From: Escherichia phage vB_EcoM_EC001
Sequence record: MN445185.1
Direction: 5' to 3' (one strand)
Length of the DNA: 64,000 bases
The notes beneath the pieces are model-generated. The model worked only from the letters and a program-made list of their open reading frames with translations, did not search any database and was not told the DNA's origin. The position numbers were made by a program, and so were the translations under genes. Shown in pieces: positions 12,837 to 31,740 of this stretch (position 1 is its first letter; every line of letters starts with the position of its first letter).

Positions 12837-13085
12837 ATGCAAAAAACAATCATCGGAATAACAGTTAGTTCTTTCTGTGGCTTCCCTACCCCACAAACAG
12901 AACCCCAATATTTAGGCGCAGGTAAACCCGATCCGGAAGTCCGTAAGTTGCGCGAAGAAGCAAAAGCCAGAGTTCTTACTGAGCTGGAATCGTTGCTTCA
13001 GTCTCCGGTTATTTCACAATGGGGTATGGCAATAGATGTCACTAGAACTGATCGACGAGGCCGTTATCTCCCACGACCTGTTTAA
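12837..13085 (+). CDS. hypothetical protein (82 aa)
   Basis: ATG immediately after upstream stop; AAAGGA SD; 3' end overlaps the macro-domain gene by 50 nt in another frame. Confidence 0.45.
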   Translation: MQKTIIGITVSSFCGFPTPQTEPQYLGAGKPDPEVRKLREEAKARVLTELESLLQSPVISQWGMAIDVTRTDRRGRYLPRPV

Positions 13086-13536
13086 CGCGCCTGAGCGCTT
13101 CAAGGTCGTTACAGTTAACTGTGTTGGTGCAATGGGAAGGGGCATTGCTTTGGCGTGCCGAGAACGCTTCCCATCGCTTTATAATGACTATCGCCAGAAA
13201 TGTCGTAAAGAGCAAATCGTTATCGGTGAGGTCTATTGTTATCCTGAGGAAGGGGTAATACTCCTTCCTACTAAAACCCATTTTCGCTATAAATCGCAGA
13301 TTTACTATGTCACGTCCGGCATTGATGCGCTGGCGCGACTAGGGGAAGACTTAGAAGGAGGGATTGCGATACCGCCCCTAGGGATGGCTAACGGTTGGTT
13401 ACGTTACCATGAGCGATTGGAAATCTTTATACACTTACAGAAACGACTACAGCACACGGAGCAGACTTATCGATTCTATTTACCGGACACATTGCTAAGG
13501 GAAGCAGAGAAAATCATCCCAAAAAGTTTCAAATAG
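13036..13536 (+). CDS. macro-domain protein, TARG1/DarG-like (166 aa)
   Basis: Motifs in order: HDLF…VNCVGAMGRGIALACRERFP, QIYYVTSG, GIAIPPLGMANGW, resembling the TARG1/OARD1/DarG macro subfamily as I recall it. Confidence 0.6.
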   Translation: MSLELIDEAVISHDLFNAPERFKVVTVNCVGAMGRGIALACRERFPSLYNDYRQKCRKEQIVIGEVYCYPEEGVILLPTKTHFRYKSQIYYVTSGIDALARLGEDLEGGIAIPPLGMANGWLRYHERLEIFIHLQKRLQHTEQTYRFYLPDTLLREAEKIIPKSFK

Positions 13537-13551
13537 ATATTATCATCAGGG
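13520..13551 (+). promoter_or_regulatory. conserved promoter-like element (ATATTATC variant)
   Basis: CAAAAAGTTTCAAATAGATATTATCATCAGGG; shares A-tract + AGATAgATATTAyC pattern. Confidence 0.4.
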
Positions 13552-13635
13552 CACATTACAAAGGAGCACAATGCCGTCCGCGCCGTCTTCCCGGATTGGG
13601 AACGGAAAAGTATAAATCCGTTTGGAGATACATCC

Positions 13636-14358
13636 ATGTTTCGCACCATTTTATTTCTTCTGGTAGCAGTGACCACATTCAACAGCAACGCTTCTTACCA
13701 GTCCACCAGTAACAAACATCAAAAAGAATTTGTCCTTATCCAGGACCAGTTCAATGAGATTAAACCTCTCATCGTCTCTGCATCTCGAAAACAAGGCGTA
13801 CATGCCGGGATGCTTGCGACCACCATTTACCGCGAATCCCGTTTTAATAAAAACGTGGGTAAGAATAAATCGAGCAGTGCTAGTAGTGTTGTCCAAATGA
13901 CGACAGGTACTAAACGCTCCATGATACGTCTGTATGGGAAACAACTTAACATCCCAAAGAACGCAGACCTTAATAAACCGAAATATGCTGTACAGCTTGC
14001 TGCTGTTTACATGAAACACATCGAGGATCATCTGACAAAACAACTCAAACGCAAGCCGAGCACAGCCGAAATTGCATTAGGCTACCGCTTCGGTGAGAGC
14101 GCTGCTGTTGCGATGATTAAAAAGAAATCATCGGTCGGGAAACGCTGGATGGACAGCTACCGAAAAGACGCAGCATTCTACGGTGCGAAAATGACGCCAC
14201 CGAAAGCTGAAACACGTCAGCTTGCTTTTGCGAAGGAAGACCGCGACCAACGCGTCGCTGAGCTTCAGAAAATCTGGGATACGCTGTACACCAAAATATC
14301 ACCTGCGGCCGGTACACTACTGGCAAATAACACTATCATGAAAGGAGCATTGCTTTGA
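13636..14358 (+). CDS. secreted protein, possible lysozyme-like/lytic transglycosylase (240 aa)
   Basis: Signal peptide; loose SLT-like segment YRESRFNKNVG…SVVQMTTGT; preceded by a 14-codon upstream ORF. Confidence 0.55.
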   Translation: MFRTILFLLVAVTTFNSNASYQSTSNKHQKEFVLIQDQFNEIKPLIVSASRKQGVHAGMLATTIYRESRFNKNVGKNKSSSASSVVQMTTGTKRSMIRLYGKQLNIPKNADLNKPKYAVQLAAVYMKHIEDHLTKQLKRKPSTAEIALGYRFGESAAVAMIKKKSSVGKRWMDSYRKDAAFYGAKMTPPKAETRQLAFAKEDRDQRVAELQKIWDTLYTKISPAAGTLLANNTIMKGALL

Positions 14359-14999: not shown

Positions 15000-15266
15000 G
15001 TGTTCGTGAAACGTTTAATAAATTTTCTCTACTGGATGGAGAAACGCTATAGCCACAACATTCCGATGATGTATAGTTTGTTATTCTCCACGGTAATGTT
15101 GGTAATCGGTGCGATAGTCGCGCATTTGATGGAACTCACCACTCCATGGGCGCAGCTTTTTCTCACCATCTGGATGTTGTTCTCAGGCTACCACATACGT
15201 GGTTTCATAACCCGATTCTTTCGCTGGCGTAGTACCTGGCATGTCTTTAATTCCGACCGTAACTAG
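15000..15266 (+). CDS. small membrane protein (88 aa; start uncertain)
   Basis: Hydrophobic ORF with two predicted TM segments; GTG 15000 or ATG 15036. Confidence 0.45.
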   Translation: MFVKRLINFLYWMEKRYSHNIPMMYSLLFSTVMLVIGAIVAHLMELTTPWAQLFLTIWMLFSGYHIRGFITRFFRWRSTWHVFNSDRN

Positions 15267-22618: not shown

Positions 22619-22643
22619 TCTGAGATAGATATTATCTACAGGG
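22616..22643 (+). promoter_or_regulatory. conserved promoter-like element (ATATTATC variant)
   Basis: TAATCTGAGATAGATATTATCTACAGGG, ~30 nt upstream of SD of gene 22672. Confidence 0.4.
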
Positions 22644-22671
22644 ACGTAACCTTAAGGAGAATTTATTCACG

Positions 22672-23406
22672 ATGCTTAAAGTCGAAGTGCCAGTGCTTTT
22701 AAACCTCACGCCCCAGTTCTTTGAAGCGTTGTTCGAAAAGCATTGGCCCGCGTTCGCGAAGAACGAACTAAAGGATAACCCACAGTGGTATCCTCTGCGC
22801 GATGAATTCAAGTATACAGCCATCAACGTCTGTATAGAAGTCTTCACTGCGTGGTTACAAGAGATGTACGACTGCATCAACACCGAACGGCTGTTCACGC
22901 TAGAACATGTAGAGATTAATGTTGTTGACGTCTACGAAGGTTACTCCTACGAAGAAGGCATTACTGCCACGGGGTTAAGCCAGCAAGACGTTGAAGAACA
23001 AATCTTTGCGTGGATCGAGTGGTTCACGGAAAAGTTGATGCTGGCTGATTTTGTCACGCAGGTGGAAGATGTATTCATCCCAATGTACGAGCGGTTAGCT
23101 GAGATACGTCGTAACCATCGACTGCTCGGTTACTGGTATGACACTTATACCACCTCCTCAACACTGTGGTCTTCCGCTACTGCCGCTTTTGGCATAACTG
23201 AAGGCGATTACGATGTCGTTCATTCTGGCCCTTGGCAGTACGGTTTCGGCACACTGTGGCACGAACTGACCGATGTCATGTGTCTGGACTTTTATCTCTG
23301 TGAAGGTAAGTTTTACACGGATAACTGCGTGAGCCAAATTCCGAATGGTGCGACGGTGGTGATGTGTCGCATCCGTAAAGAAGTCTCTAAGAAACTAAAC
23401 TACTGA
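22672..23406 (+). CDS. hypothetical protein (244 aa)
   Basis: TTAAGGAGA SD; preceded by an ATATTATC promoter-like motif. Confidence 0.65.
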   Translation: MLKVEVPVLLNLTPQFFEALFEKHWPAFAKNELKDNPQWYPLRDEFKYTAINVCIEVFTAWLQEMYDCINTERLFTLEHVEINVVDVYEGYSYEEGITATGLSQQDVEEQIFAWIEWFTEKLMLADFVTQVEDVFIPMYERLAEIRRNHRLLGYWYDTYTTSSTLWSSATAAFGITEGDYDVVHSGPWQYGFGTLWHELTDVMCLDFYLCEGKFYTDNCVSQIPNGATVVMCRIRKEVSKKLNY

Positions 23407-31147: not shown

Positions 31148-31183
31148 TCAAAAAGAACTCAGACAGATATTATCTATCCGAGA
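31148..31183 (+). promoter_or_regulatory. conserved promoter-like element (ATATTATC variant)
   Basis: TCAAAAAGAACTCAGACAGATATTATCTATCCGAG in a divergent intergenic region; shares AAAAAGAACT with 62806 copy. Confidence 0.4.
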
Positions 31184-31209
31184 CAACATCTCATAATAGG
31201 ATAACACCT

Positions 31210-31740
31210 ATGCTTTTTAAATGGCTTTCAACACTCCTGCGTCGTAAGGCTGTAGAAGCTCGCAGACGCTCTTTGGAGGCTGAGTTTCATAAGAATACCC
31301 ATAACACCCTGCACAGAGTGATGGTGGGCTTAGAACTCATTACAGAGCCTCTGGAATATAATGGGAAAGAATACCTTCCTTTTTCATTACGTGGACAACT
31401 CGAATTACGTATTCGAGATTTTGACACGTTGGTGGAGCGATTGGAATTCTTCATTTCTGAGTATAACCGTGTATCCAGTAGCAACATTCCCAATCAACGT
31501 TGGTTAGAGTTGCCTGAGGCAATCGATAGAAAAGGAGAGAGTTCAGAACCACGATGGCTTGATCATTATTTCGGTGCATCCGATCCTGAAGTCGCGCGCG
31601 ATAAACTGCGCACAGTCTTCGCTATGTTAGAACTGTATCAGCGTGCATTTGATAAACAAACACCCGAACAGGATACGCTGTTTAATCAAACCGCACATAT
31701 CTTCCGCGAGTTAGAAGTGATAGTGGAACACTATCTCTAA
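31210..31740 (+). CDS. hypothetical protein (176 aa)
   Basis: AGGA SD; preceded by promoter-like motif AAAAAGAACTCAGACAGATATTATC. Confidence 0.6.
   Translation: MLFKWLSTLLRRKAVEARRRSLEAEFHKNTHNTLHRVMVGLELITEPLEYNGKEYLPFSLRGQLELRIRDFDTLVERLEFFISEYNRVSSSNIPNQRWLELPEAIDRKGESSEPRWLDHYFGASDPEVARDKLRTVFAMLELYQRAFDKQTPEQDTLFNQTAHIFRELEVIVEHYL

Follow-up and report, generated by a model that had tools for sequence, protein, structure and literature searches.

The spacer between a macro-domain gene and an SLT-domain lytic transglycosylase gene in the window (the whole 64,000-nt stretch of Escherichia phage vB_EcoM_EC001 DNA analyzed here) contains a conserved and structured leader, which probably acts in cis as a 5′-UTR RNA element controlling expression of the SLT gene and is probably the binding site of a trans-acting factor. 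The leader is about 105 nt in length and is built from an AT-rich phage promoter motif, an AGGAG sequence, an invariant GC-rich box, a bulged hairpin, an A/U-rich box, and the real ribosome binding site (Table 1). A preliminary description of this DNA had proposed that a 14-codon upstream open reading frame (uORF) in the same spacer could regulate translation of the exported SLT-domain protein. A regulatory leader does seem to be present in front of this gene, but the uORF and its peptide are not the conserved agent. Based on sequence comparisons, we estimate a probability of roughly 0.65 for the combined reading that the leader is a cis-acting RNA element and that the 14-codon ORF within it is incidental and specific to the SPN3US clade. 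A post-transcriptional role of the element, either as a translational operator or as a stability determinant, is the version that we favor.

Table 1 Features of the macro-SLT spacer and its flanking genes, in window coordinates
Feature	Position	Strand	Basis and remarks
Macro-domain (Appr-1-p processing) protein, SPN3US_0196	13036..13536	+	Pfam Macro, E 2e-4; PHROG 335, E 1e-29; annotations
AT-rich phage promoter motif AAATAGATATTATCA (core AGATATTATC, 13535-13544)	13531..13545	+	Recurrence; invariant at this locus across genera
Whole leader element	13548..13640	+	Covariance model R1 built here, 93.8 bits, E 5e-22
GGGCAC, probable initially transcribed sequence	13549..13554	+	Nearly invariant, 14 of 15 sequences
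SD-like AAGGAG (AGGAG invariant)	13561..13566	+	15 of 15 element sequences; 16-17 nt past the promoter motif
Reported 14-codon uORF (MPSAPSSRIGNGKV)	13571..13615	+	ATG at 13571, TAA at 13613-13615; includes the GC box and the entire hairpin
Invariant GC-rich box GC(C/T)GTCCGCGCCGT	13573..13586	+	Alignment of 15 sequences; last 4 nt are the 5′ foot of the hairpin, remainder predicted single-stranded
Bulged hairpin: CCGU / CU bulge / UCCC / loop GGAUU / GGGA / ACGG	13583..13605	+	Folding, covariation
A/U-rich box AAAAGTATAAAT	13606..13617	+	CGGAAA(A/T)GTA nearly invariant; directly 3′ of the hairpin; contains the uORF stop
True Shine-Dalgarno (SD) sequence of the SLT gene, GGAGA	13624..13628	+	Position of GGAG kept among the compared lineages; 7-nt spacer to the ATG
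SLT-domain lytic transglycosylase, SPN3US_0198, annotated putative endolysin	13636..14358	+	Pfam PF01464, E 3e-6; PHROG transglycosylase, 1e-57

The two flanking genes are gp196 and gp198 in the original SPN3US numbering. The spacer between them is 99 nt, and the TAG stop of the macro-domain gene falls within the promoter motif. The SLT protein contains 240 residues, with an N-terminal segment resembling a signal peptide (judged by eye), and protein alignment shows that its N-terminus (MFR...A-S) is conserved. Its gene heads an operon of at least four genes on the + strand. The region is 97-98.5% identical, over 1.7 kb, to SPN3US-like Salmonella jumbo phages (genus Seoulvirus: JN03, SPN3US, and the SPFM and SPLA series), and no plasmid match to it was found. 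The 110 nt at 13531-13640 are 100% identical to many SPFM, SPLA, and MET_P1 Salmonella phages and differ from SPN3US itself at two positions, one of which lies in the promoter core, where SPN3US has ATTATT and the window ATTATC. A mini-hairpin of 4 bp at 13624-13639 could, in Seoulvirus and Erskinevirus, pair part of the SLT SD with the bases preceding the AUG, through UGGA...UCCA in one genus and ACGG...CCGU in the other; the other genera do not show it, and it is too weak for a firm call. An 88-residue ORF (15000-15266, + strand), located two genes past the SLT gene, contains two hydrophobic, transmembrane-like segments; it had no match in Pfam or PHROG and could encode a holin-like partner. 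SPN3US also has a separately annotated endolysin (RefSeq gp110, 135425-136042), and the SLT protein may therefore not be the main lysis enzyme.

The spacer is conserved well outside the SPN3US group. In a sensitive DNA search, distant Machinavirus phages of Erwinia and Salmonella matched the window at 13523-13616 only, that is, in the spacer and not in the flanking genes. We compared macro-SLT spacers from Seoulvirus, Erskinevirus, Machinavirus, Wellingtonvirus, the CR5 group, and metagenomic jumbo-phage contigs; the single-protein search for relatives had retrieved SPN3US itself only, and a profile search added the phage labeled L144 and the CR5 group. The alignments include 14-15 distinct leaders from approximately 10 independent lineages, and the conserved order is AAATAGATATTATCA .. 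GGGCAC. TAACA. AGGAG (5-7 nt) GCTGTCCGCGCCGT (variable stem-loop) ACGGAAA(A/T)GTATA.AT .. GGAG .. ATG. Identity to Machinavirus is 65-69% for the whole leader, compared with 56-62% for the coding sequences. The element also keeps its place: all 20 genuine copies in the viral collection lie between the macro-domain and SLT genes, and the 3′ end of the hairpin is located at a near-constant distance of ~29-34 nt from the SLT AUG. Covariance model R1 found exactly one copy in the 240-kb SPN3US genome, and BLAST found one place per record in 56 phage records. Since there is one copy per genome and the GC box is unique in the window, we rejected a repeated or mobile element. A metagenome scan and a second viral scan yielded at least one Huxley-type copy, and the other matches listed were chance matches.

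No match to model R1 was found in the CR5 group. CR5-like phages (L150, L151, and L152) have a different, internally conserved SLT leader ~200 nt upstream of the SLT start, in which a separate hairpin (GTAGT...ACTAC inside CGC..TGG/CCAGCG) is accompanied by a CUCC-GCA-GGAGG stem expected to mask an SD-like sequence. Searches of Rfam 15 returned no family on the element in the window (E<=10) or at 10 orthologous loci (E<=5), and ARAGORN reported no tRNA or tmRNA on it. There is no similarity to E. coli genomes, and mimicry of, or complementarity to, the host was rejected on this basis. In the literature searched, we found no paper on gp196-198, on the motif AGATATTATC, or on the SPN3US transcriptome, and no transcript map for SPN3US-like phages.

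The motif at the head of the leader is recurrent in these genomes. The exact 10-mer AGATATTATC occurs three times in the window, in every case in an intergenic region upstream of a + strand gene. With at most one mismatch, 11 copies are present in the window versus 2.85 expected (0 of 100 shuffles). The complete SPN3US genome has 14 co-oriented copies with the consensus cAGATAGATATTATCt, mostly 31-99 nt ahead of annotated starts, including those of the DNA-polymerase and RNA-polymerase-subunit operons, and the motif was found again at another locus in a Machinavirus phage. The promoter-like element that the preliminary description had placed just upstream of the uORF is thus present, but it is a phage-specific recurrent motif; no sigma-70 promoter was predicted on the + strand, and we rejected a promoter of this type for the leader. 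Jumbo phages that encode RNA polymerases (RNAPs) each have a ~10-nt AT-rich motif centered near -10 of their early, virion-RNAP-dependent promoters (PMC7598289). By analogy, we infer that AGATATTATC is an early promoter of the virion-RNAP type and that transcription would start ~5-8 nt downstream of the motif, at ~13549-13552.

A fixed layout of the motif, 16-17 nt, and AAGGAG was found in four copies. Three of them have the ATG of a real gene 9-12 nt further on (SPN3US gp257, gp232, and gp057), and the same motif-AAGGAG-ATG layout is found in ChrisDB. The fourth copy is the SLT locus, where the uORF ATG is the sole ATG nearby and the SLT start is located 90-91 nt past the motif. The ~55 nt that are extra at the SLT locus are exactly the GC box, the hairpin, and the A/U box.

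Several other sites were noted around these upstream motifs. Further copies of the early-type motif are located at 22623-22675 and 31161-31213 of the window; the copy at 22623 shares both the motif and the leader CAGGG(C)AC-GTAAC...AAGGAG with the SLT locus, and serves a real gene starting at 22673. In the SPN3US record, a perfect motif followed by AAGGAGacagtaATG is found at 72490-72560 (L136 22490-22560), in the 330 nt that separate the major head gene from the following annotated gene, and may represent a small gene missed by the annotation. Long leaders behind the motif, at 92544-92652 and 109897-109970 of the same record (L136, L137), precede RefSeq gp167 and gp141 and have a common box, AAATTTACGTTTCA, which may be another leader-borne regulatory element. 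Among 7-mers, CTTAAGG and TTAAGGA show the strongest enrichment upstream of SPN3US genes, which points to an SD context of unusual length (CTTAAGGAG), and AATCGACTAT is also enriched there.

A second upstream motif, TA(G/T)TATGACC, precedes structural genes, mostly with 23-35 nt to the ATG (tail sheath, virion proteins) and with 10 nt in the case of the baseplate gene. Its sites in SPN3US record coordinates (L135-L139) are +64406, -229230, -158710, -161432, +87708, +89041, +99580, +138203, and +158706. The motif looks like the TATG late promoter of phiKZ with a group-specific extension, and we found no published description of it. TATG is strictly required in phiKZ late promoters, where it overlaps the start site (PMC7598289). 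The two motifs are comparable to the promoters of phiKZ-like jumbo phages: AGATATTATC is recurrent and stands ahead of non-structural operons, like the described ~10-nt AT-rich early motif, and TA(G/T)TATGACC before structural genes matches the TATG late type. The difference is that the sequence AGATATTATC is particular to this phage group. We suggest these motifs as working definitions of the early and late promoter types in this group. A TATG late promoter within the A/U box of the SLT leader was considered and rejected, as all lineages have TATA in this box and the upstream regions of genes show no enrichment of GTATAAAT.

Downstream of the AGGAG sequence, all 14 variants tested fold alike into a hairpin of 8-11 bp with an energy of -5 to -11 kcal/mol. 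Its foot (CCGU/ACGG) is conserved, and the 5′ side usually carries a bulge of 1-2 nt; the upper stem comprises 3-7 bp and the loop 3-8 nt. The upper stems vary while the pairing is kept (UCCC/GGGA, UAUUC/GAGUA, CUCUC/GAGAG, AUUUCG/CGGAAU, ACCCA/UGGGU, and others). In an alignment-free arm-swap test, the 5′ arm of one lineage was joined to the 3′ arm of another among 10 lineage representatives; the native combinations have a total energy of -91.6 kcal/mol, compared with -62.5 ± 6.4 kcal/mol for permuted ones, and 1 of 100,000 permutations was as good. We also derived an N-padded alignment from the individual folds, corrected by hand for the register of the bulge. In this register-corrected alignment, 96.4% of the cells are paired, versus 80.8 ± 2.1% in shuffles (0 of 500), and 6 of 10 pairs have changed on both sides, with 28 such cells versus 9.5 ± 3.2 in shuffles (0 of 500); slid controls reached at most 48%. 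An unsupervised, model-fitted alignment showed no covariation, and its 76.6% of paired cells equals the shuffles. This null result arises because the bulge differs in size and position, so that the upper stems are out of register in fixed columns.

The G·U wobbles in the stem indicate the strand. The + sense RNA is more stable than its complement in 8 of 15 variants, in six of them by about 4 kcal/mol (totals of -137.5 versus -114.9), which suggests that the helix belongs to the SLT sense RNA rather than to the opposite strand or to duplex DNA. The rest of the leader shows no unusual degree of structure (z = +1.4). No other conserved helix was found, and alternative pairings in the minimum-free-energy fold of the window are not conserved. 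A second helix proposed by RNAalifold, pairing GGGCA with UGUCC of the GC box and enclosing AGGAG, was rejected, since it has no compensatory change and breaks where either side varies. With a fixed position relative to one gene and compensatory changes on the sense strand, the element is a candidate member of the generic class of structured cis-regulatory 5′-UTR elements.

The GC box matches the consensus GCTGTCCGCGCCGT in 11 of the 15 sequences. Single changes are found in the window, Caitlin, and SNUABM11, and the 5′ half of the box differs in L144 only. The box is not palindromic, and no complementary partner for it was found in the window. The A/U box lacks a T run and is not a recurrent upstream k-mer. 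The invariance of the GC box and AGGAG is in itself compatible with action as RNA or as DNA. Such near-invariance across genera, set against SLT proteins with an identity of only 45-50%, suggests that a conserved macromolecule recognizes the sequence directly, and the freely varying top of the stem suggests that the helix serves as scaffolding.

Among the alternatives, the one that survives best, and which we still regard as unlikely, is a transcription-level signal for the phage multisubunit RNAP, causing a pause, attenuation, or processive antitermination comparable to lambda nut. The order of a promoter, a conserved single-stranded box, and a hairpin varying between phages would fit such a signal, as would a single copy at the head of an operon. 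However, the hairpin is not followed by a U tract, although the upstream regions of genes in this genome are strongly enriched in T runs and pairs of a hairpin and a T run are visible elsewhere in the window. A canonical terminator was rejected for the same reason: the GC-rich hairpin is present, but the stem is followed by AAAAGTATAAAT in all lineages. The terminator scan of the + strand reported none in the element, and the sole terminator-like call there is a weak one on the minus strand (13584-13565), relying on G-T pairs. A lambda nut-like site is likewise disfavored, as the GC box is, by eye, unlike the boxA consensus and E. coli genomes contain nothing similar. Moreover, the element is close to the ribosome binding site, and its near-constant distance to the ATG fits translational control as well or better. 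To our knowledge, nothing is known about RNA-mediated control of phage multisubunit RNAPs.

The anatomy of the uORF is as the preliminary description had given it, with AAGGAG at 13561-13566, a 4-nt spacer (CACA), the ATG at 13571, 14 sense codons, and a TAA at 13613-13615, leaving 20 nt (13616-13635) ahead of ATG 13636. The uORF had also been credited with a stronger SD than the SLT gene. This is correct for pairing with the anti-SD (6 nt versus 4), but the 4-nt spacer is short and the 7-nt spacer of the SLT gene is near optimal. In the window, AGGAG followed within 3-10 nt by an ATG opening at least 10 codons occurs 23 times, versus 6.6 ± 2.6 in shuffles. These 23 matches are 20 real long genes and three short ORFs, the uORF being one of the three, and therefore the arrangement is no more than chance supplies.

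Comparison with relatives shows that the reading frame is not what has been conserved. Among 10 lineages from at least four genera, the uORF ATG is found in the SPN3US clade only. The homologous codon is TAG in four lineages and GAG, CAG, ACG, TCG, or TTG in the others; SPAsTU, which has the TAG, and Stratton are examples of relatives that lack a start codon. Ten of 14 sequences have no ATG, GTG, or TTG 2-13 nt past AGGAG, and five sequences have an in-frame stop five codons on. Indels that are not multiples of three break every reading frame on both strands, with the hairpin ranging from 23 to 26 nt and the AGGAG-to-box spacer being variable. The GC box is invariant at all three codon positions of the uORF, and in the hairpin region the encoded amino acids change radically while the base pairing stays. 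As the start codon, frame, and peptide all vary among relatives, a conserved leader peptide was rejected. A coding gene on the minus strand (SPN3US_0197 / RefSeq gp069; Caitlin gp207) was rejected as well, since its frames are broken among relatives. The minus-strand ORFs over the element (window 13556-13688; Caitlin gp207 in L005 1264-1371), annotated as hypothetical proteins in part of the inspected records only, are probably spurious given that the frames are not conserved.

Within the SPN3US clade, translation of the uORF is plausible. A further step, which we consider improbable and place second among the alternatives, is that ribosomes starting from AAGGAG in this clade unwind the hairpin and terminate 8 nt before the SLT SD, thus coupling or tuning SLT translation. 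The SD is strong, the ORF covers the entire hairpin, and its stop is close to the SLT start. The uORF start is 26 nt past the promoter motif, near the 31 nt of the shortest real SPN3US leaders. The uORF is also intact in close SPN3US-like records, and Machinavirus has a 14-codon ORF with the same frame and the same stop that begins with TTG. On the other hand, the identity of 98-100% among these close records reflects recent common ancestry rather than selection, most sequences have no start codon, the peptide is not conserved, and short ORFs behind AGGAG are at chance frequency. The spacers are also short, 4 nt in the clade and 3 nt for the Machinavirus TTG. More generally, a strong SD followed by an ATG and a short ORF in a genome scan needs to be checked against relatives before it is labeled as a leader peptide gene.

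A separate small RNA of ~55-60 nt, running from the early-type promoter to the hairpin and acting in trans through AGGAG or the GC box, is very unlikely. A stable hairpin ~55 nt past the promoter and strongly conserved single-stranded segments would suit such an RNA, but a U tail or canonical terminator is absent, neither a GC-box target in the window nor anything similar in E. coli genomes was found, and the element is always tightly linked to the SLT start. Least credible is a DNA-level site, either an operator for a DNA-binding regulator or a cruciform: relative to the inferred promoter, the invariant GC box would occupy about +25 to +38, a position from which a roadblock repressor could work, but the box is non-palindromic, each G·U wobble would become an A·C mismatch on the opposite strand, and arms that vary with pairing kept are typical of a folded single strand rather than of a duplex site recognized by its sequence.

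In the reading that we prefer, a cis-acting RNA leader, the early-type promoter would start transcription near 13549-13552 and give the SLT mRNA a 5′ UTR of ~85 nt. The hairpin would hold the single-stranded GC box beside the A/U box, 18-50 nt upstream of the SLT start codon, and the two boxes together may form the recognition site for a trans-acting factor, which could be a phage protein or host RNA machinery. Binding of this factor would set the translation efficiency or timing of the SLT mRNA, or its survival, and the secreted wall-degrading enzyme would thereby be kept under control; mistimed export of this enzyme could damage the host wall too early. By analogy with STAB-SD elements, the invariant AGGAG, which lacks a start codon in most lineages, may be a retained SD for ribosome docking or stabilization. 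The uORF of SPN3US-like phages would have arisen through a new ATG behind AGGAG. Its translation, should it occur, would open the hairpin and bring ribosomes to a stop 8 nt short of the SLT SD, an add-on to the conserved mechanism that could modulate SLT synthesis in this clade.

A more far-reaching version, which we hold only tentatively and think unlikely as a whole, is a family-wide RNA switch of nucleus-forming jumbo phages. In this version, a phage factor or the non-canonical RNAP would read the box and hairpin behind a virion-RNAP promoter, so that the secreted murein transglycosylase, along with the genes that follow it, would be held back until infection has reached the proper stage. 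If true, it would be the first RNA-based timing or antitermination-like device described for these phages. Post-transcriptional control seems to be very little understood in jumbo phages of the phiKZ-like (Chimalliviridae-type) group, and the SLT leader provides a compact and testable handle on it, with a ~105-nt leader kept in at least four genera, a co-varying hairpin, and a 14-nt box that is nearly unchanging.

The leader can be compared with several known systems. With attenuators of the trpL type and the arrest peptides ermCL, tnaC, and secM, it shares a short ORF with a good SD in the 5′ leader, which overlaps a hairpin and ends just before the downstream ribosome binding site. It differs from these regulators in that its start codon, frame, and peptide are not conserved, the conservation being at the level of nucleotides and structure, and in that no terminator/antiterminator or anti-SD alternative pairing was found. 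With lambda nut (boxA and boxB), it has in common an early promoter, a conserved linear box, and a hairpin that differs between related phages. In contrast to nut, it has no boxA similarity, again by eye, and it is a single site per genome adjoining a ribosome binding site. Transcription in phages of this kind is believed to depend on polymerases of their own and not on the host (PMC7598289), which makes Nus-type factors unlikely.

The closest parallels to the favored post-transcriptional role are found in phage translational operators and 5′ mRNA stabilizers. The leaders of T4 gene 43 and gene 32, the RegA sites, and Mu Com-mom all have a hairpin and a conserved single-stranded flank upstream of the ribosome binding site in a phage mRNA. 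As in these operators, the stem of the SLT leader can change in sequence and its flanks are fixed; the leader is not similar to them in sequence, and its hairpin ends ~30 nt before the AUG and does not include the SD. Compared with 5′ mRNA stabilizers, such as the Bacillus subtilis STAB-SD of cryIIIA and the leader hairpins of ompA and T7 gene 10, the hairpin does not occupy the very 5′ terminus of the inferred transcript, and the GC box has no counterpart. What the leader shares with these stabilizers is an AGGAG near the inferred 5′ end, with no start codon behind it in the majority of lineages, together with a stable hairpin that precedes an A/U-rich tract and the real SD.
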